Notes: generated from the letters alone by a model not told the origin. 32,000 nucleotides of DNA from Geobacter metallireducens GS-15 (GCF_000012925.1 NC_007517.1:3270001-3302000), one strand, 5' to 3'; shown: positions 2,449 through 26,144, counted from the stretch's first letter. Made by a program: numbers and translations.

Positions 2449-3450
2449 TCATAAGTCTTTGCGATTTTCCCGGTCCCCGGTCCCCGGTCCCCGGTCCCCT
2501 ACGTTGATTCGCTCGCGAATCACGTAAATCGGTTTCCCCTGCGCTTCGTAATAGGTGCGGGCGTTAAGCTCGCCGAGAAGGCCGAGAACGATGAACTGCA
2601 CCCCCATAAAGAGCAGGAACGCGGTGAGGATGAGGAGAGGGTTGCGATTCATGTTGATATGCTCGAAAAACTTGAAATAGAGGGTTGCTCCCCCGCTGAG
2701 AAAGCCCGCAAACAAGGTATAAATCCCCCACTTGCCGAAGAGCTGGATCGGCTTGGTGGAGTAGGCGAGGAGAAATTTCACCGTCATGAGGTCGAGGACC
2801 ACCCGCATGGTGCGGGAGATGCCGTACTTGCTCGTGCCGTGGAGCCGCGGATGATGCCGCACCGGCAGCTCCGTCACCCGCGCCCCCACTTGGGAGGCCA
2901 GGGCCGGCACGAAGCGGTGCATCTCGCCGTAGAGGTTCACCCCGTCGAGGACTTCCCGGCGGTAGGCCTTGAGGGTGCAGCCGTAGTCGTGGAGGTGGAC
3001 CCCGGTCATGCGGGAGATGAGGCCGTTGGCAATGATGGAGGGAAGCCGGCGGTTGATGAAGGTGTCCTGTCGGTCCTTGCGCCAGCCCGAGACCACGTCG
3101 TACCCTTCGTTGATCTTCGACAGGAGCATGGGGATGTCGGCCGGGTCGTTCTGAAGGTCGCCATCCATGGGGACGACAACTTCTCCCCGGGCGGCGTCGA
3201 AGCCGGCGGCCATGGCCGCTGTCTGCCCGAAATTGCGGCGGAAGCGGATCACCTTCACCCGCGAATCCCTCTCGGCAATCTGCCGCAGAAGCGGGAAAGA
3301 GCCGTCGCTGGAGCCGTCGTCCACCAGGATCAGCTCATAGTCGATGCCCGTCCCGGCCAGTGCTTCGGTAACCCGTCCATAGAGAGGGGGAATGTTCTCT
3401 TCTTCGTTGTAAATCGGTATAACGATACTCAGTTTCACCAAGGACCTCAC
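2449..3450 (-). CDS. GT2 polyprenyl-phosphate sugar synthase (DPM1/GtrB/ArnC-like)
   Basis: 333 aa. GT-A motifs are IVIPIYNEEENI, VDDGSSDGS and DGDLQNDP (DXD), followed by two C-terminal TM helices. The last ~17 codons ([16 protein letters not shown]) are read from array B and the cassette interior. There is a 4-nt overlap with the upstream gene. Confidence 0.85.
   Translation of the reverse strand: MRSLVKLSIVIPIYNEEENIPPLYGRVTEALAGTGIDYELILVDDGSSDGSFPLLRQIAERDSRVKVIRFRRNFGQTAAMAAGFDAARGEVVVPMDGDLQNDPADIPMLLSKINEGYDVVSGWRKDRQDTFINRRLPSIIANGLISRMTGVHLHDYGCTLKAYRREVLDGVNLYGEMHRFVPALASQVGARVTELPVRHHPRLHGTSKYGISRTMRVVLDLMTVKFLLAYSTKPIQLFGKWGIYTLFAGFLSGGATLYFKFFEHINMNRNPLLILTAFLLFMGVQFIVLGLLGELNARTYYEAQGKPIYVIRERINVGDRGPGTGDRENRKDL
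2465..2499. repeat. Heptad array B: TTTTCCC(GGTCCCC)4, right inverted repeat of the cassette
   Basis: Read directly from the sequence. It is the reverse complement of array A apart from one G. Confidence 0.95.
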
Positions 3451-4952
3451 TGGAGATTCGTCTTCTGCAAGGCAAGCCGCTCACGCAGGGCCGGAAGAGA
3501 TGCCTGAACATCCGCGGCCTCGCTAGGGTATTCCATGCCGCCGTACGCAGCAAAGAATTCGTAGTTTTTCACCGCCTCAGCCAGATTGCCCCGACGTTCC
3601 TCCGCCTTTGCCAGCGTCAGATACGCCCGGGTATTGAGGCGGTTCAGCCGTATTGCCTCCCGTGCATGGGCAACGGCCTTGTCAGTTTCGTCCGTCAGGA
3701 GATAGCTCAGGGCAACAGTCTCCTGAACCCAGGTCGAATCTGGATTCACCGCGACAGCATGGCGCCAGAGGGTATGCTCGGTGCGCCAGTATCCGTTCTG
3801 GATGGCGGTGAGAACGGCGAGGACGAGCAAAACGGCACAAAAGCCTGCCTCAACCTTCGCGCTTCTCAGTCTCTGGAGCAGCACGGCTAGGGCGAGGCCG
3901 ACACCGGGAAGGCAGAGATACATATACCTGTCGGCAGCCAAATAGGCAACCGGCACGAGGTTTGACACCGGCAACCAAAACACGAAAAACCAGCCGATCC
4001 CCAGCGACAGAAGGGGAAGGCGGCGGGCCGCCCGCACCATCACGGTCACCAGCACGACAAGGAGTGTACCGGAAAGAAGCGCCCACGGTTGCAGGAAACT
4101 CTCTGCCAGCCGGAACGTGTATTCAGGGGCAAGCCCCACGGGGAGGACGATCTTCCAGAGATAGAACCCGAATGCCGTCATCGACCCCATAAAAAGGGGA
4201 AGGTAGCTTCGGGAAGCCATGAAACTGTTCTTAGAGTAAATGGTCAGGAGCTGCTCGGGCCGGATGAACCCTCGGAACGTGTACAGCAGATACGCCGCGG
4301 CAATGGCTCCGGACACGGCAAGAAGCAGGGGGCGACGGAGGAGAATTCGCCGTTCCCGTGGCATCCCGTAACACTCCACGAGAATGACGAGCAGGGGAAG
4401 GGTAATCACCGTCTCGTTGGCAAGGAGCGCAACGACATAGCCTGCAACGGCAACGGCCATAAACGCCACCCGCCGTCCACCGGCCAAAGCGGCAGCCTTC
4501 ACATACCCGTAGAGCGAAACCAAGGAGAAGAAGAGCGTCAGGAGTTCCTTGCGGTGCGAAAGATTCGCAACCGATTCGGACTGGAGGGGGTGTACGAGGA
4601 AGAAAAGAGCACCCAACAGGGCGTACGGGAGTTCGACCCCGAGCAGTCCAAAGACCAGAACCAGAAGAAAACCGTTCATCCCGTGCCAGGCGAGCTGCTG
4701 AACCCGGTACCCCGCCGGCTTTTCACCGAACAGGTGATACTCCGGGATATAGGTCAGTTCCCGCAGGGGACGACCGGGGCGACTATTCTCAACAAAGCCT
4801 TTAAGGGAATGGGCGTCGGGGTTTTGCACAATGACCGGCACATCGTCATAGGTCCAGTCGTTGAGGAAGGTATTCCCGTACACCACCACGGTCGTCGCAA
4901 GGAAGAACAGCAGGACCGTTCTCTTCCTGATCCCTGTCAAACACCCGGTCAC
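3447..4952 (-). CDS. GT-C type membrane glycosyltransferase with C-terminal TPR repeats (PMT/TMTC/ArnT-like)
   Basis: 501 aa. The N-terminal region is polytopic, with an acidic first-loop motif NDWTYDDVPVIVQN. The C-terminus is TPR-like (AYLTLAKAEERRGNLAEAVKNYEFF). It is translationally coupled on both sides by ATGA-type overlaps. Confidence 0.7.
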   Translation of the reverse strand: MTGCLTGIRKRTVLLFFLATTVVVYGNTFLNDWTYDDVPVIVQNPDAHSLKGFVENSRPGRPLRELTYIPEYHLFGEKPAGYRVQQLAWHGMNGFLLVLVFGLLGVELPYALLGALFFLVHPLQSESVANLSHRKELLTLFFSLVSLYGYVKAAALAGGRRVAFMAVAVAGYVVALLANETVITLPLLVILVECYGMPRERRILLRRPLLLAVSGAIAAAYLLYTFRGFIRPEQLLTIYSKNSFMASRSYLPLFMGSMTAFGFYLWKIVLPVGLAPEYTFRLAESFLQPWALLSGTLLVVLVTVMVRAARRLPLLSLGIGWFFVFWLPVSNLVPVAYLAADRYMYLCLPGVGLALAVLLQRLRSAKVEAGFCAVLLVLAVLTAIQNGYWRTEHTLWRHAVAVNPDSTWVQETVALSYLLTDETDKAVAHAREAIRLNRLNTRAYLTLAKAEERRGNLAEAVKNYEFFAAYGGMEYPSEAADVQASLPALRERLALQKTNLQ

Positions 4953-5962
4953 GGCGTCAACCGTCCGTCATTGTCGGCGCGCGCAACGCCGGCGGCGGCC
5001 CACGGCATCCCCAACTCCTTAATCACCCGCACCGCCACCGCCGGTGGCTCTGTCTGAGACTGTGCGAAACGGGGTCGGAGCACCCCCTTAAGCAACCCCG
5101 CCCCGTACGACAGATGGAGGGTTGGAAAGAGTATAAACAGCAAAGGGATTGCAGCCGGAGCCCTTCCCTGCCATGCTGCGGCAACGGCAGCTGCAATAAG
5201 TAACGCGCCGTAACAGATCAAGGGGATAAACCACAACAGCGTCGGTGCCCAGGGGAGCAGCAGAAGATAGGCGAGAAAAAACGCCGGCGCGAAATCGATC
5301 CCGTGGCGGAGGCCGGCAATGCGCGTCTGCTCTCCCCGTCCGGTCCCGTAGCCGAAAAACTGGCGCATAAAAGCCCGAAAGCTTGGCCGCTGGCTCCGAT
5401 AAATCGCCAACTCCGGGTCGTGGACCAGGAGCCATCCATCGGTCAGGAGGCGATCCATAAGCTCGTTTTCTTCATTCGGGTAGAGGCGTTCATCGAGCCC
5501 TCCAAAGGCAAGGAAGAGTTCCCGGCGGAAGGCCAGATTGCAGAGGATCAGCTCCCGCTCGCTTGAGGGACGTGCGGCGCCGGTCCGGCGGTAGCGGTTG
5601 CGCGCCCCGCCGCCACCGAAGGGAGAGGAAATAACGAGCCCCACAGCCCGCTGGAAGAAGGTGTCGGTTGCCGGAGTAAGGGACGGTCCCCCCACTGCCG
5701 CCACACGCGGATCAACGAAGCGCTCGACCGCTCGCTGCAAAAAGGCGGGATCAACCAGCGAGTCGTCATCGAGGAAATATACCAGCTTCCCCTTGGCCAT
5801 GGCAGCTGCCCGGTTCCGCTGGCGGCTCGGCGAACACCCTTCGGCGACAAGCACCTCAATGCTCCCGGCCGGGTAGTTAACCGTGCGGAGCCGCTCCACA
5901 GCCCGAACCTCGCCCCCCGGGCGGACGGGAATTATGATCGAAACCGGCTGATTATCATTCAT
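4949..5962 (-). CDS. Glycosyltransferase family 2 with a C-terminal membrane domain
   Basis: ORF 4949..6007. The likely start is MNDNQPVSIIIPVR (ATG 5962). It has an FLDDDS DXD-type motif and C-terminal hydrophobic helices. Confidence 0.75.
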   Translation of the reverse strand: MNDNQPVSIIIPVRPGGEVRAVERLRTVNYPAGSIEVLVAEGCSPSRQRNRAAAMAKGKLVYFLDDDSLVDPAFLQRAVERFVDPRVAAVGGPSLTPATDTFFQRAVGLVISSPFGGGGARNRYRRTGAARPSSERELILCNLAFRRELFLAFGGLDERLYPNEENELMDRLLTDGWLLVHDPELAIYRSQRPSFRAFMRQFFGYGTGRGEQTRIAGLRHGIDFAPAFFLAYLLLLPWAPTLLWFIPLICYGALLIAAAVAAAWQGRAPAAIPLLFILFPTLHLSYGAGLLKGVLRPRFAQSQTEPPAVAVRVIKELGMPWAAAGVARADNDGRLTP

Positions 5963-6042
5963 CCTTGAATGCCTTGAAAAACACAAAAACCGGGAGATCC
6001 CGGTCATGACGTTTGATGCGAAATGGCCTGTCCGGCAGCCGG

Positions 6043-8235
6043 TCAGAACGACTTTTTCATGGAGGCCATCAGGCGCTTCTCGACCCGTTCATCATCCTTG
6101 CGTTTTCCGTAACTGTAGTCGATATTGAACTGAAACTTGCGGAAATTGAGCCCCACATAACCGTTGTAGATGAATTCAGGGGCGTTTCTTGGCAGCAAGA
6201 GCGAATAAGCGACATTGCCGCCAAGGTACAGGTTTCGGAGCGGATAATACCGGGCGCCGAGCAGGAAGCGCTTCCTCCCCGTGGTCGTTGACGTTGACGA
6301 AATCGTGTCGCTCTGGGATATGGTGAACTCTTCGGTCAGCTCCAGAAGTTTACGCTGCTGGCCGCCCAACTGATAAAACGAATAGGTAAGCCTCTGCATC
6401 AGATCCACATAGGTGGAGTTGTTTCCCTTTTCGTCCCGTTTGTAAATCATATAGCGCACCAGGGCGTCAAGGGAGCGGTTCGGCGTATACTGGGCACTGC
6501 CGGTGTGCTGCAGATCGGTTGAGCGGCCATCGGCATTGCTGCGCAGAGAGACGCGATTTTCCATGTTCAAGCGCAGGTTGTCAAGGGTGTAGTCAACCCG
6601 GTTGCTAACCGTGGTCAGGTAGTCCGTAGTGGCCTGTGAACTCACGAGAACATCTTCGGTAGCAGTCAGGGAGACGGTTAACCGCGAAAGCGGGAGCCAG
6701 GAGAGGCCGGCAGTGGTGACGGAGCGGTAATAGTCATTGGGCTGCTCCTCACGGCGGAACACATCGTTTGAGTTGCCGAAGTTGGTCTGGGTAGTGATTG
6801 AGTAGCTGTCAGTCAGTGCCGCGCTGTTGCCCCGCACCGCGGTCACGGATTCATCGAGGTTCAAGGTCAGTTGCGGGTTTACCCGGTAACCGAGCCGTCC
6901 CCTGGCGTTCTGGAAGAGATAGCTTGACGCCCCCTCCCTCTCGGAATCGAGATAGCGGATATTGTAGCTCCCCCCCACGGTAAATTGGTCGGAAAAGCGT
7001 CTCGTGCTCATGGTCTCCAGCAGGGCTTCCAGTCCCAGGGTCTTTGTCCCGTTGGATTCGGCATCCTCGACCGTATACCGTTGGGAAAGGGTAAAGGGAG
7101 ACCGTTTGAAGCTCTCCAGCCGGAACATGGCACTGGTGTTGTTGTCGATCGTCGTTGTCAGGCGGTTCTGCTTTACCTCACGGTCGCGCCGGGTAACCGA
7201 CGCATTCCAACTGGAATCCATGCCGAACGCCCCCGACAGGTAGAGGGGGATGTTTCTCTCCAGGCGGATCTCGTTGCCCTCGCGCTCCCGGGAGAAGGTG
7301 AGAAAACTCCTGGCGTCCCAGTTCTTACGCTGGGCCATGGCAAAAAAGTTCACGTCATAGGCATCGTTATGACTGGCAGACCGCTTGGTGTACTGGAAAT
7401 CAGTGGAGATCTTGAGCCAGTTGGTGAGGTCGATCCAGCGGCGCTGGAGCGTGTGGTCCACGGTCCCCAACTGCACCTGGCTCTCCTGGTAGCTCTGGCC
7501 CGGGTTGATGTAGTCATCGAAGCGGGTGGTCCGGTAGTGGAACCAGTTGTCGCGCTTGTTGAGGCTGACAAAGGCAAGCTTGCGCAACCGGGTGTCGACC
7601 GGCGTGATGCTTCTCGAATCCTCGTGCCGCTCGTCCCGATAATCCAGGAGCACCATGGGGATGTGACGAAAAATGGCGTTATAGCCGTTGGTGAGGCCGT
7701 TTTTGACACCCAATACCATCGTTGCCCCGGTGAGGGTGTTGGTCCCGGTGCCGTTCAGGGAGGTAATGATGTTCGGCTCGAAAATCCGCCCACTCCTCCC
7801 CTCGGTCAGCAGAGAATCCATGGTGAACGTCGAGGTGGTCATGTCGCGGGAGTAAGCCTTGAGCTTCAGGGGAAGCTCGGCCGGATCCAGCACCAGTTCA
7901 CCGTTGAACAGGATCTTGCCGGCGCTCGTCGAAGGTTTCCACGTGGCGTTGTCCGCCGCGTTGTAGACCCGTGAATCGAAGGAGGCCCACTCGTAGCCGA
8001 GGGCGCCGTTGTAAAAGCCGAAGCGGTCGCTGTACAGTTCGCCGCTCTTTTCGTACAGCACTGAATAGCGCTGGCTGAAGGTATGGGCGTCGGTTACCGT
8101 CGTCCCCTTTTCCTGCGCCTCGTAGGAGACATAGTTCAGCTCTATATCGCCCCGCAGCCGCGCCGACGCGCGGGACGCCTGCAGCAGCACCGCAGACATC
8201 AGCAGAAACGTTATGAGGAGCGAGCGACGAATCAT
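6043..8235 (-). CDS. Large predicted outer-membrane beta-barrel protein (~705 aa mature)
   Basis: ORF 6043..8379. A plausible start is ATG 8235, giving the signal peptide MIRRSLLITFLLMSAVLLQASRASA. The sequence has an alternating, Y/N/S/T/R-rich composition. The terminal residue is Phe (...MKKSF), typical of OMP barrels. The ORF upstream of 8235 runs through terminator hairpins. Confidence 0.65.
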   Translation of the reverse strand: MIRRSLLITFLLMSAVLLQASRASARLRGDIELNYVSYEAQEKGTTVTDAHTFSQRYSVLYEKSGELYSDRFGFYNGALGYEWASFDSRVYNAADNATWKPSTSAGKILFNGELVLDPAELPLKLKAYSRDMTTSTFTMDSLLTEGRSGRIFEPNIITSLNGTGTNTLTGATMVLGVKNGLTNGYNAIFRHIPMVLLDYRDERHEDSRSITPVDTRLRKLAFVSLNKRDNWFHYRTTRFDDYINPGQSYQESQVQLGTVDHTLQRRWIDLTNWLKISTDFQYTKRSASHNDAYDVNFFAMAQRKNWDARSFLTFSREREGNEIRLERNIPLYLSGAFGMDSSWNASVTRRDREVKQNRLTTTIDNNTSAMFRLESFKRSPFTLSQRYTVEDAESNGTKTLGLEALLETMSTRRFSDQFTVGGSYNIRYLDSEREGASSYLFQNARGRLGYRVNPQLTLNLDESVTAVRGNSAALTDSYSITTQTNFGNSNDVFRREEQPNDYYRSVTTAGLSWLPLSRLTVSLTATEDVLVSSQATTDYLTTVSNRVDYTLDNLRLNMENRVSLRSNADGRSTDLQHTGSAQYTPNRSLDALVRYMIYKRDEKGNNSTYVDLMQRLTYSFYQLGGQQRKLLELTEEFTISQSDTISSTSTTTGRKRFLLGARYYPLRNLYLGGNVAYSLLLPRNAPEFIYNGYVGLNFRKFQFNIDYSYGKRKDDERVEKRLMASMKKSF

Positions 8236-8264
8236 GACTCTACCAGGTACCGAAACGGGGACAA

Positions 8265-8301
8265 GGGGAAAAACGGCCCGGCACAGAGGGGAGCCGGGCC
8301 G
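8265..8301 (-). terminator. Rho-independent terminator/attenuator downstream of omcE
   Basis: On the minus strand: CGGCCCGGC-tcccctctgt-GCCGGGCCG followed by TTTTTCC. The stem is 9 bp of G/C. Confidence 0.7.
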
Positions 8302-8321
8302 AAAACGATCGTTTGACAGAA

Positions 8322-8352
8322 CCGATGGAGACGGGCTTGCCTTCTCCATCGG
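8322..8352 (-). other. 10-bp perfect hairpin immediately after the omcE stop
   Basis: CCGATGGAGA (8322-8331) pairs with TCTCCATCGG (8343-8352). No U-tract follows. It may be an mRNA 3'-end stabiliser. Confidence 0.5.
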
Positions 8353-8363
8353 CTCGTCACAAC

Positions 8364-9086
8364 CTACTTGATATGGCACCCGAGGCAGAGGGCGCTCCCC
8401 GCCATGGTGGAACGGAGGAACTTGGGATAGTTATAGGTAGTGTTTGTCTGCCCATGGACCGCATGGCACGAGGCGCACTCCAGGTTATTGGCAACGCCGT
8501 CTGCCTTGAACAGGGGGAATTTTTTACCGGCAAGTAGCGTGGCGTTGGCAACTATGCCGGCGTCCTTGGTCGAATCGTATACGAAGTTGACCGGATGCGA
8601 CTTGGTCAGGTCAGTACCGAAGTTCGCGCTACCGACAATTTTTGATGCAGCAGTTGTGGTATCACCACCATTCGGAATCAACGCGTTATTGGAAACCCCC
8701 ACCGGCTCGGCGCCGATCATGCTGCCGCCAAGTGCGCTGCCGTCATGGCAGCTCATGCAGAAGAGGGAGATACTGTCGGCGGTGAATCCGTTACGGGAGG
8801 GATTCGGCTTCATGTCAAAGGTCTGGGATGAGGTGTAGAGTTTGAAGCTGCTGGCGGTGTTTGTCGACGCGTTACGGTTCCACAGGGGGACCGCCTGGAC
8901 CGCATTGTGGGGGGTATGGCAGAAGACGCAGACCTGGTCGGTCTGGTTCGTACCGGGAGTGGTAAAACTCAGGTCATGCGGTGATCCCTTAATCCCCTTT
9001 ACCGTCCCAGAGGGTGCCGCACCCGAGGACGAAGCCATCCCCATCAGTGCAAGCGCTGCCAGTGTCATAAGAATCCTTCGTTTCAT
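8364..9086 (-). CDS. omcE: Tetrahaem c-type cytochrome, OmcE homologue
   Basis: 240 aa with a signal peptide. It has four CXXCH motifs (CVFCH, CMSCH, CASCH, CLGCH). Its position after ppcA-resB-ccsA-cyt-cyt-NHL matches the G. sulfurreducens GSU0612-GSU0618 order as I recall it. A strong AGGAGGAAGG RBS precedes it. Confidence 0.75.
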   Translation of the reverse strand: MKRRILMTLAALALMGMASSSGAAPSGTVKGIKGSPHDLSFTTPGTNQTDQVCVFCHTPHNAVQAVPLWNRNASTNTASSFKLYTSSQTFDMKPNPSRNGFTADSISLFCMSCHDGSALGGSMIGAEPVGVSNNALIPNGGDTTTAASKIVGSANFGTDLTKSHPVNFVYDSTKDAGIVANATLLAGKKFPLFKADGVANNLECASCHAVHGQTNTTYNYPKFLRSTMAGSALCLGCHIK

Positions 9087-9173
9087 TGTTCCTTCCTCCT
9101 CGTTATTGTGGGTTGTCGAGCACTATCCTCTGCTGTCCGTATCCCGACGGATCTCTTGTGTTACCACAACCAC

Positions 9174-9189
9174 AGCAACAACAATGCCA
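9174..9189 (-). promoter_or_regulatory. Candidate sigma-54 promoter for omcE
   Basis: The minus strand reads TGGCATTGTTGTTGCT. The GG and GC elements have the exact consensus spacing of TGGCAC-N5-TTGC. It lies ~90 nt upstream of the omcE ATG. Confidence 0.4.
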
Positions 9190-9516
9190 ACCTCAGCACT
9201 GAAACGTCGACTAGCTCCAACAAGAACCCTTCGCACCCCGGCGACCGCATCCAGTGTCTGAAATACACCATCTGCGAGCCCCACGCCCGGGATTCCCGCA
9301 CTTACCCTTTTCTTGACCGCCCCACGATTGCGGACAAAACCTTCCCCCGAAACAGTCAATCAGATGGCCCCTGTTCAGCTATTTCGCGTAAAATTTACGG
9401 AGATGAGGCGGACACCGAAACGTGGAAGTTTGGCAACTGACGAAAGCAGGTATGGAATGGAGACACAGGATCCGGCAGGCTGGAAAGGTGGAGAAGAGAG
9501 ATTTGAGCGGCACAAT

Positions 9517-9556
9517 GCGGCCCTCCACCACCCAGAGTAACGTGGTGGAGGGCCGC
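9517..9556 (-). terminator. 15-bp perfect hairpin downstream of the NHL gene (terminator-like, no U-tract)
   Basis: GCGGCCCTCCACCAC (9517-9531) pairs with GTGGTGGAGGGCCGC (9542-9556). It begins 9 nt after the stop at 9565. Confidence 0.55.
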
Positions 9557-9564
9557 TTCTGCCA

Positions 9565-10656
9565 TCAGGGAGAAGGGGTGTAGCCGGGGATGGGATTCGC
9601 CTTCAGATAGGAATCGGAAATATAGCGAAATACCTGAAAACGGCGGTTGAGTTGATCAACCACATAAATCATGTTGTCCTTGTCGATGTCGATCCCCTGG
9701 GGGATGACAAATCCGCCGGGCGCGGTCTTGCCGGTGGTAAGCGCCGAGAAGGCCCCCCCAACCGTCAGCAGATAATCGCCCGTCGTGCTGAAGATCTCGA
9801 ACTTATGCCCCTTGCCGTCGGTTACGTAGATGTTGTCGTCGGAATCAACCGCAACCCCCTTGATCAGTTGCAGGGTCCCGGGCGAATCCCCCCGCTGGCC
9901 GAACATCCTGAGGAATTTGCCATCGCTGGAGAAGATCTGGATGCGGGCATTCATGGCATCCGCCACAATGATCTCGCCTTTGTTGTTAACGGTCAGCGCA
10001 CTGGGGAAGTTGAATTCGCCGGGCTTGGTGCCGCGGTTGCCAAAGCTTGAAAGAAGCTCTCCTCTCAGGGACAACACCAGCACCTTATGCCCGCGCACGT
10101 CCAACGCCAGGAGGTGTTTCCCGATCCGGTCATAGGCAATGTCCCCTATCTTTTCAACCATTCCCTTCAAATTGATAAGCGCTGCCGGGGTTTCATCCTG
10201 ATGGAACACCATAATGGCAGCCTTCTTCGTGTCGGAGACATAAATACGTCCGTTTTCGTCGATGGCAATTCCGACCGGCTGCTCAATGCGTGCCTCGGCC
10301 TCGGCCTTGCCAAAGGGTCGCATGATATTGTTTACAAAATCGAACACATAGACTCCCGGCGCCCCCGGGTCACCCACGTAGACCTTGCCCCGGCCATCGG
10401 AACGGACGGTGATCGGCTTGGAGAGTGATATCCCTTCTTCTTCACCAATAATAGTCGTCAAGAACTTCTCAGTGGCACTCTTCGGAAAATCGTTCTGACT
10501 GCTGTAGGCATTCAGCCACTCGATGCGGGGCCGCTCGGGCAGAGGCGGCCAGAAAAAGCGCTGCTCACTCTTCACCTGCTGCCCGGCACACCCGGCAAAG
10601 AGCGCCGCCATGGCCGCCAGCACAGCAAATCTACCGATGCTTCGTATTGTTTTCAT
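9565..10656 (-). CDS. NHL-repeat beta-propeller lipoprotein
   Basis: 363 aa. It has a lipobox (LFAGC). Repeated blades follow the pattern G.F..P.GIA.D..G.IYV.D... Confidence 0.8.
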   Translation of the reverse strand: MKTIRSIGRFAVLAAMAALFAGCAGQQVKSEQRFFWPPLPERPRIEWLNAYSSQNDFPKSATEKFLTTIIGEEEGISLSKPITVRSDGRGKVYVGDPGAPGVYVFDFVNNIMRPFGKAEAEARIEQPVGIAIDENGRIYVSDTKKAAIMVFHQDETPAALINLKGMVEKIGDIAYDRIGKHLLALDVRGHKVLVLSLRGELLSSFGNRGTKPGEFNFPSALTVNNKGEIIVADAMNARIQIFSSDGKFLRMFGQRGDSPGTLQLIKGVAVDSDDNIYVTDGKGHKFEIFSTTGDYLLTVGGAFSALTTGKTAPGGFVIPQGIDIDKDNMIYVVDQLNRRFQVFRYISDSYLKANPIPGYTPSP

Positions 10657-10697
10657 ATTTTCCCCTCACTCCATGAGATTTACTGAGCAGTACTGGC

Positions 10698-10731
10698 TTT
10701 CCCGGTCCCTGGTCCCCAATCCCCAGTCCCG
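10698..10731. repeat. Heptad array C (degenerate): TTTCCC GGTCCCT GGTCCCC AATCCCC AGTCCCG
   Basis: Read directly. It has the same orientation and the same GGGAAA tail as array B. It sits in the 78-nt spacer between the octahaem gene's stop (10735) and the NHL gene's start (10656). Confidence 0.85.
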
Positions 10732-10734
10732 GCC

Positions 10735-11727
10735 TCACTTATTATGACACATCTGGCAGAGCAGCAACCGGTCCTCGGAGTTATTGACGAAGAAATACCG
10801 CGCATCACCCGCATGGGGGTTGTGGCATGAGATGCACGACATCTCCCGGCCGGTCTTGGGGGCCGACGGATCCTTTGCACCGCTCACCGGGTGCCCCGCG
10901 CCGGTGGTGGTGCGCACCACGTGGGGAGTTTTCTTGATGGATTCGTGGCACGACAGGCAGAGCTCGTTGATGGGAGCCTTGAGCTGCCCATAATTGGCGC
11001 TGCCATGGGAATCGTGGCAGACCTCGCACATCCCGCCGGCAATGGGACCGTGGATATACTTCCGCTTGGCGAACTCGGCGGCCTTGTCGCCGTGGCACTC
11101 GTTGCACAGGGGGGCCTCCCGCTTGGTCACCACGTACTTGGGCGTCGCCTTTTCCTTGTGGCAATAACCGCAGGAGTAGGTGCCGGCGGGGCCATGGACG
11201 AATTTCACGTCGAGCATTTTCCGGTGGCAGCCGATGCAGGGGTTTTCCTTGGCCAGGGTACTCAAGGACTTGTCGGATGAGGGGGCCATGTCGTGACATC
11301 CGACGCACCGGGCCTCCAAATCCGGCTGGTGAAACGAATTCGCCTTGAATTCCGGAGGGATATCGGACGCTTTGGCGCCTGGCGCGAAGTAGACCGATGC
11401 CTGGGCCGTTTCCGCGCGGCTCTTGCCGATGAACGTTTCCACTGTCACTTCGTTGCGGCCACGATCCCACACCGGTTGCACAATAAGAAAATCCTGGAAG
11501 GCCCGTCGGTACTCCGGCGAGCCGACCACGAGGAGATCGCTGACAACTCCGTTCACCCCGATCCGGACGCCGGTGACCTCGGTACTGTTCAGCTTGAGAA
11601 TCAGATGATTGGAGTTCTCGACCCAGGCATTCGGCGCGGGATAGATAAAGGAGACCCCCCCGAACGCCACGGCTGCCCACCCGAGAAACACCGCTGTCAC
11701 GACTCCTGTTATCCCTCTCCGGGACAT
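10735..11727 (-). CDS. Octahaem c-type cytochrome with an N-terminal non-haem domain
   Basis: ORF 10735..11922. A start at ATG 11727 has a GGAGG RBS and gives the signal/anchor MSRRGITGVVTAVFLGWAAVAFG. There are eight CXXCH motifs in the C-terminal ~200 aa. Confidence 0.85.
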   Translation of the reverse strand: MSRRGITGVVTAVFLGWAAVAFGGVSFIYPAPNAWVENSNHLILKLNSTEVTGVRIGVNGVVSDLLVVGSPEYRRAFQDFLIVQPVWDRGRNEVTVETFIGKSRAETAQASVYFAPGAKASDIPPEFKANSFHQPDLEARCVGCHDMAPSSDKSLSTLAKENPCIGCHRKMLDVKFVHGPAGTYSCGYCHKEKATPKYVVTKREAPLCNECHGDKAAEFAKRKYIHGPIAGGMCEVCHDSHGSANYGQLKAPINELCLSCHESIKKTPHVVRTTTGAGHPVSGAKDPSAPKTGREMSCISCHNPHAGDARYFFVNNSEDRLLLCQMCHNK

Positions 11728-11738
11728 GGTTCCTCCAT

Positions 11739-12749
11739 CTAGGGATTTCTCACTGCCCGAAGACGGTCGTATGACTTGGGCTTGTGACACCCTGCAACAC
11801 AGGTGCCGCCGGTATCGGTTTTCGTATAACGGATGGGAATCTCCCACGTGCCGAAACCGGGAATCCTCTCCTTGATGAGCCGCGGCTGCAATGCCGCATG
11901 GGGATCGTGACAGGTCTTGCACGAACGTCCCTTGTCGGGCTTGTTGATGTGAAGATTGTGCAGGTTACGGTCGCCGTTACGGAATCCGGTGATGGTATCG
12001 GTACGCTTGTCCTGGGCAAGATCCTTTGTGTGACAGTCGAAGCAGAGGGCGAAGTTTTCCTGGGCATAGGGGAGATAGAACTGTTCGGGAAAAGCGTTTT
12101 TCAGAATCTTGTAAAAGGGCGAACCGTGAGGGGCGTGACAGTCGGTACACCCCCCTGCGGCTACCGGACCATGAATTGACACCCCCTCTGCCATTTTTTT
12201 GTCATGGCAGATAAAACAGAGCCCGGCGCCACTCCCCTTGAGGAGCGCACGATTATCGGACTGATGAGGATCGTGGCACCCGAGGCATGAGCCCTCAGCC
12301 ACCGGCGCATGCCGATGCGTTGCCTTGAATTTTTCCTCATCATGGCAGCCGAAGCAGAGCGCTGCCCCGTCCGCCTTGAGCTGCATCCGGTAGGGGGACT
12401 GGTGCACATCGTGGCAATCGAGACATGCCCCCTTGGCTACAGGCGGGTGAACCACCTTCTTGTCCGCCTTTCCTTCGTGGCAGACGGAGCACAGCTTCGC
12501 CCCCTCGGCAACAAGTCGGAACGCTCCGCGCTGTTTCGGATGCTCCAGGCCGGTGGGGTTATGGCAGGAGATACAGTCGTCGGACCCCACGGGGCCATGC
12601 ACAAAAGCCTCCCGCACCTTGCTCTTATGGCAGCGGGTATTGCAGCCGTCGGGCACGCCAGGCAGGGAAGATGCTGCCGCAAAGCCGCCCGTCAACAGCA
12701 GCCAGAATGCGGCTGCAGTAACGGAAAGGAAGAGAGGGGATGCTGTCAT
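11739..12749 (-). CDS. Multihaem c-type cytochrome (9 CXXCH plus 2 CX3CH motifs)
   Basis: ORF 11739..12863. A start at ATG 12749 gives the signal peptide MTASPLFLSVTAAAFWLLLTGGFAAASS. The motifs in order are CNTRCH, nine CXXCH, then CVAGCH. Confidence 0.85.
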   Translation of the reverse strand: MTASPLFLSVTAAAFWLLLTGGFAAASSLPGVPDGCNTRCHKSKVREAFVHGPVGSDDCISCHNPTGLEHPKQRGAFRLVAEGAKLCSVCHEGKADKKVVHPPVAKGACLDCHDVHQSPYRMQLKADGAALCFGCHDEEKFKATHRHAPVAEGSCLGCHDPHQSDNRALLKGSGAGLCFICHDKKMAEGVSIHGPVAAGGCTDCHAPHGSPFYKILKNAFPEQFYLPYAQENFALCFDCHTKDLAQDKRTDTITGFRNGDRNLHNLHINKPDKGRSCKTCHDPHAALQPRLIKERIPGFGTWEIPIRYTKTDTGGTCVAGCHKPKSYDRLRAVRNP

Positions 12750-12925: not shown

Positions 12926-13780
12926 CTACCCTCCTCCACCGTAGCTGTGGAGCCCGGAAAGGAAAAGGTTAACCCCGAGATAGCAGAAAATTGTTGCGGC
13001 AAATCCGACAATGGAAAGGATGGCCGCCTTCTTGCCGACCCACCCGCGGGTGAAGCGGGCATGGAGGAAAGCAGCGTAGATGAACCAGACGATGAGGGAC
13101 CAGGTTTCCTTCGGGTCCCAGCTCCAGTAGGTACCCCAGGCGTAGTTGGCCCAGGCGGCGCCGGTTATGATGCCGAGAGTAAGGAGCGGAAAGCCGATGA
13201 TGATCGCCTTATAGTTAAGGTCATCGAGAATCTTGATGGAGGGAAACATGGCGATTATTCCGCCGGACTGGGCGCTCCCCGCCGACTCATCCTTGCCCGC
13301 CTTGATCAGGTACATGATAGAGATGCCGCAGGCCACCGCGAAAGCGGCATACCCCAGGAAGCAGGTAATGACGTGGTAGAGGAGCCAGTTGCTCTGCAGC
13401 GCCGGCACCAGCGGCTGGATGCCGCTGTCCATCCCCAACTGGGCCCAGGCCATACCGAGAAGAGCAAAGGGAACCACGAAGGCGCCCACGACCCGGTATT
13501 TGTACTTGAGATCAATGATTCCGAAGATAAGGATGATGGTCCAGGCGAAAAAGACGACCGACTCGTAGAGGTTCGAGAGGGGGGCATGGCCCATCCCGAT
13601 GTCATAGGACTCCTTCCAGCGAAGCAGAATCGCGGCGGAGTGGACGATGAAGCCAAAGTATGCCGCCAGACTTCCGACAAGTCCCACGGACTTCCCCTTC
13701 ACCGCCAGGAAGGTGAAGAAGGCGAGCATGGAAATCAGATAGGAAAAAGTTGCGATATTGAACAGCATGGAACTGGTCAT
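12926..13780 (-). CDS. ccsA: System II cytochrome c biogenesis protein CcsA/ResC
   Basis: 284 aa, polytopic. It carries the WWD haem-handling motif WGTYWSWDPKETWSL. Confidence 0.9.
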   Translation of the reverse strand: MTSSMLFNIATFSYLISMLAFFTFLAVKGKSVGLVGSLAAYFGFIVHSAAILLRWKESYDIGMGHAPLSNLYESVVFFAWTIILIFGIIDLKYKYRVVGAFVVPFALLGMAWAQLGMDSGIQPLVPALQSNWLLYHVITCFLGYAAFAVACGISIMYLIKAGKDESAGSAQSGGIIAMFPSIKILDDLNYKAIIIGFPLLTLGIITGAAWANYAWGTYWSWDPKETWSLIVWFIYAAFLHARFTRGWVGKKAAILSIVGFAATIFCYLGVNLFLSGLHSYGGGG

Positions 13781-13798: not shown

Positions 13799-15157
13799 TT
13801 ACTGTTGTTTCAGCTTGTCGACCAGCGCGTCAAAAGCAAGCTGGAAGCCCGGTTGGTTCTTGTTTGCGCTGCCGCCAAGGGTGACCTCCCCCTTGCGCAC
13901 CCGAATCCAGATACGCCTGTGGGACATGAAGAATGCCATGCAGCAGCCGGCAACCATGAGGAAACAACCGGCCCAGACGACCCACACCCCAGGATCTTTG
14001 GCCACCTGTAGCCCGGTAAACATTTTTTCTTCGGAGCCGTCATAACTGAAGATCAGGTCGCCGCCACGCTGGGCATCGAACTCGGGGTAATTTTGAAAGA
14101 CAATGAAGACCTGGGGGGCGCCGCCTCCCTTGGGGGTCACTTCGATTCTCGCGGCCGGCCCCTGGAACTGGGGAATGAACTTGCTCACCTCCTGGGCAAC
14201 CTCGAGAACCTGCATGGTTGAGCCGTCGGAAAGGACTTTCCGCTCACCCTGCTGGATCGAAATCTTTGCCGGCGCGCCACCTTTGCGTTCACGTACCGTG
14301 AAGAAGTAGAGCCCCGCCCCCTCGGCCGGCCTGTAGCTCGCCTGGTAGAAGGTAATCCCCTTGTAGGTAAGCGGATCGTTGACGATGACCGGCCGCTTGT
14401 CGAACACCACCTTGCCGCCGTCGATAACGGTCAGGAGACTCTTGAACTCCTTCGGAGCTCCGGTATCGTAGTATGAAACCGTGAATTTATCGCACCGGAC
14501 GGTGAAGCCGAGATCAATCGGCTTCATGTCCGCACGGTTGTGAACGACCGACGTGCTGGTGCCCTCGGCGATTTCGACGTAGGCCTTGTACCCGAAGAAT
14601 GAGCCGATGAGTGCTCCGATAAAGATGACGATAATGCTCAGGTGGACCACATAGACCCCGAGCCGGCTGTAGGGAGTCTTCTGGGCAAAGAGGTGGAACT
14701 CGCCATCCCGCTCGGTCACCACCGGTGCGGCAAATTCACCCTTGAGGAAGGCTACCATCTTGTCCCGAAGCGATGCTGCATCGCCATTCATCTTGAAGTC
14801 GTGGGTCAGGCTCAATGTTTTTTCAAATTTGTCATCCATGACCAGGGTAGGCTCGGAAATGGCCTTCCAGACCCGCGGCAGACGCTTGATGGAACAGGCA
14901 ACAATATTGACCGTAAAGAGATAGAGCAGGAGGATGAACCACCAGGAGTGGTACATGTCGAAAAAGCCGAGTGCCTGGTAGAACTTGTGTTTCCCCTCGC
15001 TGATCGTCTGAAGATACTCGGGGGGGGGAGGCCCTTGGGGAATGATCGTGCCGATGATCGATGTGGCTGCCAACAGGATAAGAAGGGATATGGCAAGCTT
15101 AAGAGAGCAGAAGAAATCCCAGAGGGTTTCCAAAAAGCCGCGATTGCTGGTTGTCAA
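13799..15157 (-). CDS. resB: System II cytochrome c biogenesis protein ResB/CcsB
   Basis: 452 aa. It has N-terminal TM helices, a large soluble domain and a C-terminal TM, and it is paired with ccsA. The start is TTG 15157, with GGGAG upstream. Confidence 0.85.
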   Translation of the reverse strand: MTTSNRGFLETLWDFFCSLKLAISLLILLAATSIIGTIIPQGPPPPEYLQTISEGKHKFYQALGFFDMYHSWWFILLLYLFTVNIVACSIKRLPRVWKAISEPTLVMDDKFEKTLSLTHDFKMNGDAASLRDKMVAFLKGEFAAPVVTERDGEFHLFAQKTPYSRLGVYVVHLSIIVIFIGALIGSFFGYKAYVEIAEGTSTSVVHNRADMKPIDLGFTVRCDKFTVSYYDTGAPKEFKSLLTVIDGGKVVFDKRPVIVNDPLTYKGITFYQASYRPAEGAGLYFFTVRERKGGAPAKISIQQGERKVLSDGSTMQVLEVAQEVSKFIPQFQGPAARIEVTPKGGGAPQVFIVFQNYPEFDAQRGGDLIFSYDGSEEKMFTGLQVAKDPGVWVVWAGCFLMVAGCCMAFFMSHRRIWIRVRKGEVTLGGSANKNQPGFQLAFDALVDKLKQQ

Positions 15158-15350: not shown

Positions 15351-15623
15351 TTACTTCTTGTGGCAATCGCCGCACTTGGTCGGCCCCTTCTTCATTTCTT
15401 CGTGGCAGCCCTTGCAAGTCTTGTGAGCCCAATCCTTGCCAAAGCCCTCGATCTTGCCCGGGCCCTTCTCGTGGCACTTCTTGCAGTTGCCCACCACTTG
15501 CTGGTGCTTTTTGTGCGGGAACTTGACGTCCCCGTTCTTTGCCTTGAAGGTAAGCTCGTCAGCGGCGAAGGCAAGGCCGGCGCAGAAGACGGACAGGGCA
15601 AGAGATGCGATGATTCTTTTCAT
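15351..15623 (-). CDS. ppcA: Periplasmic triheme cytochrome c7, PpcA
   Basis: 90 aa with a signal peptide. It has three CXXCH motifs. It is near-identical in pattern to Geobacter PpcA (KAKNGDVKFPHK.H, CHEKGPGKIEGFGK, CKGCHEEMKKGPTKCG.CHKK). Confidence 0.95.
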   Translation of the reverse strand: MKRIIASLALSVFCAGLAFAADELTFKAKNGDVKFPHKKHQQVVGNCKKCHEKGPGKIEGFGKDWAHKTCKGCHEEMKKGPTKCGDCHKK

Positions 15624-17584: not shown

Positions 17585-17621
17585 AAAAAAATCTCCGTGG
17601 TGGATTTTCGTAATATTCGCC

Positions 17622-22799: not shown

Positions 22800-22951
22800 A
22801 AGCAGCCTGCTGGGGGAGTTCTTCGAGAACTGAGACGGGCACCGCCCGAACCCTTACCACCTGATCCGGGTAATGCCGGCGTAGGGAAGCGGCCAGAGAC
22901 CTCGTTTACCTCGTTGAGTTCTGGGACCGTGACCATCGTCACGGTTTTTTT
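22800..22951 (+). ncRNA. TPP (THI-box) riboswitch with a terminator expression platform
   Basis: The conserved THI-box core is CUGGGGGAG...CUGAGA...ACCCUUACCACCUGAUCCGGGUAAUGCCGGCGUAGGGAAG. It is followed by the hairpin ACCGTGAC-catc-GTCACGGT and a T7 run (22926-22951). Confidence 0.9.
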
Positions 22952-22966
22952 GTTTGGGAGATCACC

Positions 22967-24460
22967 ATGGGCAGCAACGGCCACAATCTCCGGCTGGTCG
23001 TCAATCGCGACAAGCAGGACTCCCCCATCCGGGGGGTGTACCTGGTCACCGACCACGGCGACCGTCTCGCGGAGCGGGTGGAGGCGGCAATCGACGGCGG
23101 GGTCCGCATCGTCCAATACCGGAACAAGGGAAAGGACCGGGCCCAGCGCTACGCCGTGGGTGAGGAACTACGGGACCTCTGCAGCCGGCGGGGGGTGATC
23201 TTCATCGTCAACGACGACCTGGATCTGGCGCTGCAACTCAAGGCCGATGGCATCCACCTGGGGCAGGAGGACGGCGACCCCCGTATTGCCCGGCGCGAAC
23301 TGGGACCGGGTAGAATCATCGGCGTCTCCACCCATACCATGGAAGAAGCCCTGGCGGCCCAGGCGGCGGGGGCCGACTACATCGGCTTCGGCGCCATGTT
23401 CCCCACCAACAGCAAGGAGATCGGGCACCTGGCCGGGCCCGAGGGGCTCGCCGCCATCCGCAGCCGAATCATGATCCCCATTGTTGCCATCGGCGGCATC
23501 AGCCGGGACAACGGCCCACGGGTGGTCGACGCCGGAGCCGACGCCCTGGCGGTCATCTCGGCGGTTCTCGCCCATCCGGACCCGTTCCTGGCCGCGACGG
23601 AGCTGGGCCTTCTCTTCAACCGGCGCGCACCACATCCCCGGGGGGCTGTGCTCACCATTGCAGGAAGTGACTCGGGGGGCGGAGCCGGCATCCAGGCCGA
23701 CCTCAAGACCGCGACACTGCTGGGGAGCTACGGCTCATCGGTCATCACGGCGCTCACTGCCCAGAATACCCGGGGGGTCTCCGGCATTCACGGCGTCCCC
23801 CCCTCCTTCGTGGCCGAGCAGCTCGATGCGGTCCTTTCCGACATCCCCGTGGACACGGTAAAGACCGGCATGCTCTTCTCTGCCGAAATCATCGCCACCG
23901 TGGCCGACAAGCTGGCCGAGTACCGGAAGCGGATCGTGGTGGTGGACCCGGTCATGGTCGCCAAGGGAGGCGCCCCCCTCATCGACCGGGGAGCCGTGAA
24001 CGTCCTCAAGGACCGCCTCATGCCCCGCACCTACCTCCTCACCCCCAACATCCCCGAGGCGGAACGGCTCACGGGGCTCACCATCGTCGACGAAGAGGGA
24101 ATGCAGGAGGCGGCCCGGCGCCTCTTCCGTCTCGGTGCCCGCAACGTCCTCGTCAAGGGGGGGCATCTGGTGGCCGGTGATGCGGTGGACATCCTCTTCG
24201 ACGGCTCCGCCTTCCACCGTTTCACCGCGCCCCGCATCCTCAGCAAGAACACCCACGGAACCGGCTGCACCTACGCCGCGGCCATCGCCACCTACCTGGC
24301 CCAGGGAGAGCCGCTCCGGGAGGCCGTTGGCCGCGCCAAGGAGTTCGTCACCGCCGCAATCCGCCTGGGCCAGCCCCTGGGCCGGGGGCACGGACCGGTG
24401 AACCACCTCCTCGCCGCGCTTGAAGTCGGGGACCAGGGACCGGGGACCGGGGACCGGTAA
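22967..24460 (+). CDS. thiED: Fused thiamine-phosphate synthase (ThiE, N-terminal) / hydroxymethylpyrimidine-phosphomethylpyrimidine kinase (ThiD, C-terminal)
   Basis: 497 aa. ThiE motifs are GVYLVTD, IVQYRNK and GADYIGFGAMFPT. ThiD motifs are VLTIAGSDSGGGAGIQADLKT and HGTGCTYAAAIA. The last 10 codons ([10 protein letters not shown]) are heptad array E. Confidence 0.9.
   Translation: MGSNGHNLRLVVNRDKQDSPIRGVYLVTDHGDRLAERVEAAIDGGVRIVQYRNKGKDRAQRYAVGEELRDLCSRRGVIFIVNDDLDLALQLKADGIHLGQEDGDPRIARRELGPGRIIGVSTHTMEEALAAQAAGADYIGFGAMFPTNSKEIGHLAGPEGLAAIRSRIMIPIVAIGGISRDNGPRVVDAGADALAVISAVLAHPDPFLAATELGLLFNRRAPHPRGAVLTIAGSDSGGGAGIQADLKTATLLGSYGSSVITALTAQNTRGVSGIHGVPPSFVAEQLDAVLSDIPVDTVKTGMLFSAEIIATVADKLAEYRKRIVVVDPVMVAKGGAPLIDRGAVNVLKDRLMPRTYLLTPNIPEAERLTGLTIVDEEGMQEAARRLFRLGARNVLVKGGHLVAGDAVDILFDGSAFHRFTAPRILSKNTHGTGCTYAAAIATYLAQGEPLREAVGRAKEFVTAAIRLGQPLGRGHGPVNHLLAALEVGDQGPGTGDR
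24428..24457. repeat. Heptad array E: GGGGACC AGGGACC GGGGACC GGGGACC GG, followed by the TAA stop
   Basis: Read directly. It has the same orientation as arrays A and D. Confidence 0.95.
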
Positions 24461-26069: not shown

Positions 26070-26144
26070 GCCACCGTAGCACAGGGGTAGTGCAGCCGAT
26101 TCGTAATCGGCAGGTCAACGGTTCAAATCCGTTCGGTGGCTCCA
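26070..26144 (+). tRNA. tRNA-Thr (anticodon CGU)
   Basis: I folded the cloverleaf by hand. Acceptor GCCACCG/CGGTGGC; D arm GCAC/GTGC; anticodon stem GCCGA/TCGGC with loop TTCGTAA; T arm AACGG-TTCAAAT-CCGTT. The CCA end is encoded. Confidence 0.9.

Follow-up and report, generated by a model that had tools for sequence, protein, structure and literature searches.

The window analysed here is a stretch of 32,000 nucleotides (nt) from the chromosome of Geobacter metallireducens GS-15 (NC_007517.1:3270001-3302000), to which all coordinates below refer. It encloses a cluster of five genes built around omcE, the gene of a tetrahaem cytochrome that is the subunit of a nanowire. The cluster spans positions 6043-12749 on the minus strand and, in order of transcription, encodes two multihaem cytochromes (cyt11 and cyt8), an NHL beta-propeller lipoprotein of the outer membrane, OmcE itself, and a large outer-membrane beta-barrel (Table 1). 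All five genes were found where an earlier note on this DNA had placed them, and matches to Pfam families and PDB structures likewise bear out its placing of ppcA and of the System II cytochrome maturation genes (CcsA and ResB) upstream of the cluster.

Related loci were collected in two ways. A scan with a profile of the barrel, keeping one genome per species, yielded 78 loci (L001-L078) in which the neighbouring genes were assigned by tblastn with the window proteins. A converse scan, anchored on OmcE and run on metagenomes, yielded 80 loci (L079-L158), with subsets of 40 loci with flanks of at least 1.3 kb and 15 loci with flanks of at least 4 kb.

Proteins and expression signals of the OmcE cluster

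Judged from its sequence, the tetrahaem protein is a genuine OmcE homologue. It matched the OmcE filament of G. sulfurreducens (PDB 7TFS) with an E-value of 6.4e-45 and a second multihaem cytochrome entry (PDB 9YUQ) with an E-value of 8.6e-21. Its eight histidines and four CXXCH motifs were invariant over 34 homologues, and its signal peptide displayed no lipobox.

The gene that follows omcE encodes the outer-membrane beta-barrel. This protein is 99% identical to a protein of G. grbiciae and 46% identical to the G. sulfurreducens barrel. It had no match in Pfam or NCBIfam, and the barrel profile did not find any sequence in the PDB. Among 1.84 billion proteins, the profile retrieved 236 cluster representatives at E<=1e-3 (178 of them at E<=1e-30); by these searches, the family is small, discrete and unannotated, and in the genome loci its genes belong to clusters of the omcE type wherever the flanks can be read. 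AlphaFold2 predicted an all-beta structure with 36 long strands for the window protein (alignment of 49 sequences, predicted local distance difference test (pLDDT) 86.2, predicted template modelling score (pTM) 0.63). The independent prediction for the G. sulfurreducens orthologue (119 sequences, pLDDT 87.7, pTM 0.67) displayed 36 strands again. Connections between strands are mostly of 2-7 residues in the model, and no plug domain is predicted. The C-terminal residue is phenylalanine, the usual signature of outer-membrane barrels, in 67 of 72 homologues. The best conserved stretch comprises residues ~160-280 and, by strand parity, would include the longer periplasmic turns.

Foldseek searches with both models returned outer-membrane barrels only. 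The best query-normalised template modelling (TM) score was to Deinococcus SlpA (0.43-0.44), followed by ushers, LptD and TonB-dependent receptors. Under standard barrel geometry, 36 strands would give a backbone diameter of ~6 nm and a lumen of roughly 5 nm, values that are geometric estimates from the strand number rather than measurements on the model coordinates. The barrel is thus predicted to be large enough to hold a folded OmcE subunit or a filament. Cytochrome nanowires are reported to be 4-6 nm wide (PMC12954529).

The propeller protein encoded upstream of omcE matched the Pfam families NHL (E-value 9e-25) and DUF5128, a six-bladed propeller (E-value 5e-13), and carries a lipobox, in agreement with its earlier description as an NHL lipoprotein. 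The two cytochromes encoded before it also resemble what the earlier note had reported, namely a cytochrome with 9+2 haems and an octahaem cytochrome with a non-haem N-terminal domain. In cyt11, nine CXXCH motifs are joined by CNTRCH and CVAGCH, which makes 11 sites in total, and the protein matched Pfam Paired_CXXCH_1 with an E-value of 1.4e-59. Its C-terminal CX3CH was kept in 46 of 47 homologues, and its N-terminal site was either CXXCH or CX3CH among them. Meanwhile, cyt8 has eight CXXCH motifs, a number shared by all 70 of its homologues. Its haem-free N-terminal domain measures ~140 residues rather than the ~150 first given, and had no Pfam match even at E<=10.

Table 1. Position and main characteristics of the OmcE cluster, its putative expression signals and its neighbouring genes
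Feature	Position	Strand	Characteristics
ArnC/PgfS-like polyprenyl-phosphate glycosyltransferase	2449-3450	minus	third downstream glycosylation gene
Membrane protein with C-terminal TPR	3447-4952	minus	second downstream glycosylation gene
GT2	4949-6007	minus	first gene after the barrel gene
Terminator-like hairpin with T-tract	5978-6005	minus	38 nt past the barrel stop codon
Outer-membrane beta-barrel (730-residue precursor, ~705 residues mature)	6043-8235	minus	Sec signal peptide; orthologue of GSU0619
Two tandem hairpins after omcE	8269-8352	minus	hairpin 1 at 8352-8322; hairpin 2 with stem at 8301-8274 and TTTTT at 8273-8269
omcE, tetrahaem nanowire subunit (240 residues)	8364-9086	minus	4 CXXCH, exactly 8 histidines; AGGAGG ribosome-binding site
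Candidate sigma-54 (RpoN) type -24/-12 element TGGCATTGTTGTTGCT	9174-9189	minus	103 nt 5' of the omcE ATG
GC-rich hairpin, 15 bp, no T-tract	9517-9556	minus	just past the NHL stop codon
NHL beta-propeller outer-membrane lipoprotein (363 residues)	9565-10656	minus	lipobox LFAG/C; orthologue of GSU0617
cyt8, octahaem cytochrome (330 residues)	10735-11727	minus	Sec signal peptide; GGAGG ribosome-binding site; orthologue of GSU0616
cyt11, multihaem cytochrome (336 residues)	11739-12749	minus	Sec signal peptide, no lipobox; orthologue of GSU0615
CcsA	12926-13780	minus	Pfam Cytochrom_C_asm, E-value 1e-54
ResB	13799-15157	minus	Pfam ResB, E-value 9e-115
PpcA	15351-15623	minus	PDB PpcA matches, E-value ~1e-34

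The hairpins and promoter-like elements of the cluster provided insights into how these genes may be expressed. The GC-rich hairpin between the NHL gene and omcE likely marks the end of a transcription unit formed by the two cytochrome genes and the NHL gene; their G. sulfurreducens counterparts, gsu0615-0616-0617, are a predicted operon (PMC1829397). For omcE, the earlier note had given a candidate promoter and terminators of its own. The terminators stand: the second of the two hairpins after the gene is a canonical intrinsic terminator, and a hairpin with a T-tail occurred 3' of omcE in 68 of 72 related loci (94%), compared with 1% after the two cytochrome genes and ~25% after other genes. 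This conserved terminator sits 20-40 nt past the gene. The promoter turned out differently. A simple sigma-70 scan detected no promoter upstream of omcE or of the barrel gene, and a candidate sigma-54 element precedes omcE instead. Elements of this type (TGGCAY-N5-TTGCW) were detected 74-213 nt upstream of omcE in 41 of 73 related loci, the background frequency being 0.035 per kb. No report of RpoN control of omcE was found in the literature searched; the gene is up-regulated in an ihfB-2 mutant (PMC7962754). Control of omcE by a riboswitch for cyclic di-GMP or cyclic GMP-AMP (c-di-GMP/cGAMP) was considered and dropped, since Rfam displayed no riboswitch or other known RNA near this gene. Finally, the barrel gene sits between two terminator-like sites, without a recognisable promoter of its own.

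Linkage, co-divergence and exchange of the barrel, NHL and omcE genes

Throughout the 78 barrel-anchored loci, genes are arranged in the order cyt11, cyt8, NHL, omcE, barrel, with a second NHL gene between omcE and the barrel gene in some of them. The window has a single NHL gene, as do ~18 single-NHL loci of Geobacter type; a pair is present in roughly 50 of the 78. Wherever the sequence suffices, omcE lies directly upstream of the barrel gene, except in L062, in which it lies just downstream, and in L045, which has no omcE. The latter, an 8.8 kb contig from a metagenome-assembled genome (MAG) of Desulfuromonadaceae, is the only locus in which the NHL gene is succeeded at once by the barrel gene and omcE is missing from its place; a deletion could explain this, as could an artefact of the assembly.

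Glycosylation genes lie downstream of the barrel gene, and it might be postulated that the barrel serves the glycosyltransferases among them by exporting or anchoring a polysaccharide or glycolipid, its proximity to omcE being secondary. A GT2 or ArnC-like gene does directly follow the barrel gene in most loci, and the first two glycosylation genes of the window share the divergence of the barrel. However, the barrel gene and omcE are also found together in five loci (L046, L050, L055, L075 and L076) with no glycosyltransferase for 3-10 kb downstream. In the window, a terminator-like site separates the barrel gene from the GT gene, and no export genes of the Wza/Wzx/Wzy type or of the synthase type were seen in the left 6 kb. 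In addition, minimal clusters devoid of glycosylation genes have been described, and the OmcE of D. soudanensis is unglycosylated (bioRxiv 10.1101/2025.10.22.684050). The earlier note had named a barrel that tracks the glycosyltransferases and not omcE as the pattern that would speak against a role of the barrel with OmcE. The loci display the opposite, because the pairing with omcE holds where glycosyltransferases are absent. Glycan export was therefore rejected on synteny, and we regard it as hardly credible.

The divergence of the proteins was compared through pairwise distances over 46 loci plus the window, with the divergence of ResB/CcsA regressed out in partial Mantel tests. Correlations were found between OmcE and the barrel (r 0.51), the NHL protein and the barrel (r 0.41), and OmcE and the NHL protein (r 0.34), each with p 2e-4. 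The partial r of OmcE was 0.08 with cyt8, which is not significant, and 0.13 with cyt11. The genes of the NHL lipoprotein and of the barrel diverge along with omcE, and the two glycosylation genes next to the barrel gene may do so as well; cyt11 does not, and cyt8 largely does not.

Mean pairwise identity over L001-L078 was 36% for the barrel, 41% for OmcE, and 51-54% for the two periplasmic cytochromes. Among close genomes, in which ResB/CcsA are 85-98% identical, the barrel varies as much as OmcE does, which is unusual for an outer-membrane machine.

Comparison with the sister species G. hydrogenophilus (L008) revealed where this variation begins. The DNA of the two species is 93% identical from position 17585 down to 10480. 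At this point, which falls within the 5' part of the NHL gene, the identity breaks, and only short patches of 68-76% are found beyond. The same boundary is seen in the proteins: ResB, CcsA, cyt11 and cyt8 are 95-98% identical (cyt8 95%), and identity is 59% for the NHL protein, 50% for OmcE and 44% for the barrel. Taken with GT2 and the TPR membrane protein, the products of the divergent genes are 44-66% identical between the two species, and those of the flanking genes 87-98%. The region between ~2500 and 10480 of the window appears as a hypervariable cassette, in a pattern like the allelic replacement of a surface-structure locus.

Modules of this kind also occur in several copies. The MAG CALZLE01, if its bin is clean, contains three distinct cyt8-NHL-omcE-barrel modules (on contigs L046, L052 and L059), which are 35-50% identical to one another. 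The locus L060, derived from another MAG, is identical to L059. As read from these sequences, the NHL-OmcE-barrel module is swapped and duplicated as a whole. Conserved linkage and co-divergence thus strongly support a dedicated partnership of OmcE with the barrel and the NHL lipoprotein; the earlier note's proposal to this effect stands as far as synteny, co-divergence and inheritance as a unit can carry it.

Downstream of the glycosylation genes of Table 1 lie a GT4 gene and the gene of a MarR-type regulator. The longest open reading frame (ORF) of GT2 begins at 6007, inside the terminator-like hairpin after the barrel gene; judging from the sequence, translation probably begins with the ATG at ~5962 (MNDNQPVSIIIPV...). 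The membrane domain of the TPR protein had no Pfam match at E<=10, and its assignment to GT39 in the preprint cited above was not confirmed. Elsewhere in the window, on the plus strand, a thiamine pyrophosphate (TPP) riboswitch was detected at 22802-22904 (75 bits, E-value 2.6e-13), upstream of a 497-residue ORF at 22967-24460, as well as a tRNA-Thr (CGT) at 26070-26144.

Candidate roles of the barrel and the NHL lipoprotein

Based on these findings, we postulate that the barrel and the NHL propeller tethered to the outer membrane form a dedicated platform that polymerises OmcE and extrudes the filament, keeps it anchored, or both. We consider this reading probable on balance. The OmcE pre-protein would leave the cytoplasm through Sec and receive its haems from the System II (ResB/CcsA) encoded next to the cluster, and then be handed to the platform composed of the 36-strand barrel and the propeller lipoprotein. 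There, subunits would be polymerised and the filament extruded and/or held, in a manner reminiscent of an usher, here for a cytochrome filament. Given that hardly any loops and no plug domain are predicted, the barrel would have to be occupied, and OmcE and/or a periplasmic cytochrome may fill it and so keep the membrane sealed. The two multihaem cytochromes encoded upstream are proposed to serve as generic relays within the periplasm, docking where the barrel opens towards it. According to the earlier note they would pass on electrons from PpcA, but neither co-diverges with OmcE. As to expression, omcE would be transcribed from a sigma-54 promoter of its own up to strong terminators, yielding the subunit in large excess, and the barrel gene would be expressed at a low level by read-through, following the logic of pilus operons. 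The sequences establish which genes are present, how they are linked, co-diverge and are inherited as a module, what architecture is predicted for the barrel, and which promoter and terminator elements occur; the physical interaction between these proteins, the direction of transport, the occupancy of the barrel and the read-through are inferred.

Several observations weigh against such a platform. The strand count of 36 was read from DSSP strings, from which we deduce that the strands close into one barrel and how wide its lumen would be. The residuals of the mirror-tree comparison may keep phylogenetic signal, as the barrel and cyt8 also displayed a partial r of 0.52. A gsu0616::kan mutant, affected in the orthologue of cyt8, reduced Fe(III) oxide faster than the wild type (PMC1829397). 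In transposon sequencing (Tn-seq) on electrodes, the defects of GSU0615-0619 were all mild (log2 -0.5 to -0.9) and uninformative. For OmcS and OmcZ, published work assigns a part in export to the PilA-N/C pseudopilus (see the review PMC12307469). Lastly, the barrel family found in the window, here family A, occurred in only six of the 80 metagenomic OmcE loci. As it was carried by just two of the 15 well-flanked ones, we conclude from these loci that the Geobacter barrel family is not universal to OmcE-type proteins.

Some of these observations would fit a porin-cytochrome conduit, in which the barrel is a sheath like those of Mtr/Pcc systems around cyt8 and/or cyt11. Such a conduit would charge and anchor an OmcE filament exported by other means, for example by the type-II-like PilA-N/C pseudopilus, which is reported to be necessary for OmcS and OmcZ. 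The structural comparisons speak for this reading in part, as MtrB (6r2q_B) gave the lowest Foldseek E-value for both barrel models (6e-9 and 1e-9); the TM-scores of these matches were just 0.25-0.34, and the barrel has no MtrB_PioB domain. The earlier note had placed the ~705-residue barrel in the size class of MtrB, and this is right as to length but not as to the number of strands, 36 being predicted here and 26 belonging to MtrB. Likewise, cyt11 and cyt8 displayed partial matches to TIGR03508, the DmsE/MtrA family, with scores (96.9 and 65.9 bits) that remain under the family cut-off of 192.2. The divergence of the barrel tracks that of cyt8, as said above, and cyt8 belongs to the four-gene module that is duplicated in CALZLE01. 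However, in the exchange seen against G. hydrogenophilus the barrel has fallen to 44% identity with cyt8 still at 95%, which argues against a tight fit between the two, and the gsu0616 mutant was unimpaired. A conduit of this kind is the main rival to the platform, and we hold it to be rather unlikely.

The scarcity of family A outside Desulfuromonadia raises another alternative, that the NHL lipoprotein alone is the assembly factor specific to OmcE and that the barrel is an interchangeable accessory of particular clades, such as an anchor that places the filaments, which the mechanism would not require. Among the metagenomic OmcE loci, an NHL gene adjoins omcE in 33 of the 40 with flanks of at least 1.3 kb and in 14 of the 15 with flanks of at least 4 kb. 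The NHL-omcE pair is often tandemly repeated there. Most such loci nevertheless keep another large ORF, poor in cysteine, whose product starts with a signal peptide and ends in phenylalanine. The main group of these, here famB, is a second family of putative outer-membrane barrels and consists of proteins of 580-690 residues, cysteine-poor and mostly with both of the latter traits, and was found in 27 of the 80 metagenomic loci (8 of the 15 well-flanked ones); other large candidates of the same kind occur as singletons in L093 and L140. Furthermore, within Desulfuromonadia the linkage between the barrel gene and omcE is near-perfect. We therefore find it quite improbable that the NHL lipoprotein acts alone. 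We read these loci as pointing to the NHL-OmcE pair as the universal core, with a large barrel retained as a role whose sequence family changes between clades.

Tandem NHL-omcE pairs together with famB are exemplified by L088, L094, L105, L117, L120, L151 and L154. Homology between family A and famB is not claimed, the hhalign comparison having reached a probability of 62% over the C-terminal 132 columns.

The dedicated platform could also be taken further, to a new class of outer-membrane filament machine, which we put forward tentatively and with the odds rather against it. Its centre would be a single-chain barrel of 36 strands, plug-less and loop-less, whose lumen of ~5 nm would let fully folded, haem-loaded and possibly polymerised OmcE pass or would permanently sheathe the base of the filament. 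The conserved periplasmic turns within residues ~176-273 would dock the NHL protein. The genes of the NHL protein, OmcE, the barrel and the two glycosylation genes would then form a horizontally exchanged, antigen-like cassette under a sigma-54 switch.

Relation to known systems and significance

The OmcE cluster of G. sulfurreducens (GSU0615-GSU0619) and those of other Desulfuromonadia have been described, with the barrel "putatively functioning as a secretion or anchor" (bioRxiv 10.1101/2025.10.22.684050). The same work has the cluster components flanked by purHDE-resB-ccsB on one side and, in Geobacter, by 15-70 glycosylation genes on the other, reports that the smallest clusters carry two beta-propeller proteins, and favours a porin model over a pilus pump. 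The idea of the barrel as an export or anchoring device of OmcE was thus already proposed in 2025 by specialist groups, and the value of the present analysis lies in corroboration and detail. In the window we found an OmcE-type subunit, an adjoining large barrel, a propeller lipoprotein, and two upstream cytochromes in the expected position. Gene content, gene order and the chromosomal position after purHDE, ppcA and resB/ccsA equal those of the described clusters, whereas the window copy is a divergent allele and, unlike many clusters, contains a single propeller gene instead of a pair. In the literature searched, we did not find the 36-strand prediction, a quantitative account of co-divergence, the break of the cassette within the NHL gene, the terminator that follows omcE in nearly all loci, the sigma-54 element, or the replacement of the barrel family outside Desulfuromonadia.

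A comparable arrangement is known for another nanowire. The osc cluster of OmcS (GSU2500-GSU2493) encodes the chaperone OscH, the channel-like OscEFG, and OscD (Shen et al. 2025, Cell Chem Biol 32:239, via PMC13194489), and papers that cite this work mention proposed roles in secretion and filament morphology. The two subunits, OmcS and OmcE, share no sequence relationship. The osc cluster also has a prolyl-isomerase chaperone, OscH, whereas no peptidyl-prolyl isomerase (PPIase) domain was detected in the five OmcE-cluster proteins, the rest of the window not having been scanned. The fold of OscD is reportedly beta-propeller-like. In both clusters, as far as the osc genes can be compared by the description given of them, the gene of a nanowire subunit would stand beside channel-like outer-membrane proteins and a beta-propeller-like protein.

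The MtrCAB/Pcc systems resemble the OmcE cluster in that the gene of a large barrel adjoins those of multihaem cytochromes, some periplasmic and one extracellular. They differ in the latter: OmcE is a polymerising tetrahaem protein without a lipid anchor and not a decahaem lipoprotein of the MtrC/OmcB type. The OmcE cluster thus displays neither a 26-strand barrel of the MtrB/PioB family nor, in OmcE, a surface lipoprotein cytochrome.

The likeness to chaperone-usher systems (FimD/PapC) lies in the layout, with the gene of an abundant subunit ending at a terminator and a single barrel gene downstream; FimD and PapC were both among the Foldseek matches. OmcE, however, polymerises by haem-histidine ligation between subunits and not by donor-strand exchange (PMC12307469). 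The OmcE cluster also displays no usher Pfam domain, no plug or N/C-terminal usher domains, and no chaperone with an immunoglobulin fold of the PapD type, and the TM-scores to ushers were <=0.25.

Other very large single-chain barrels are known. SlpA of Deinococcus forms a barrel of about 30 strands, and SprA of the type IX secretion system (T9SS) one of 36. That the best TM-score was to SlpA agrees with a barrel of more than 26 strands, although no sequence relationship was found. Unlike these proteins, the OmcE-cluster barrel has no SLH, coiled-coil or cap domains and would fit 36 strands into only ~705 residues.

Current reviews still treat as speculative the assembly of micrometre-long cytochrome wires and their passage across, or attachment to, the outer membrane (PMC12307469). 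The five-gene OmcE cluster is the most compact candidate machinery for the assembly or attachment of such wires, and a minimal, transferable assembly module would matter for the heterologous production of protein nanowires.

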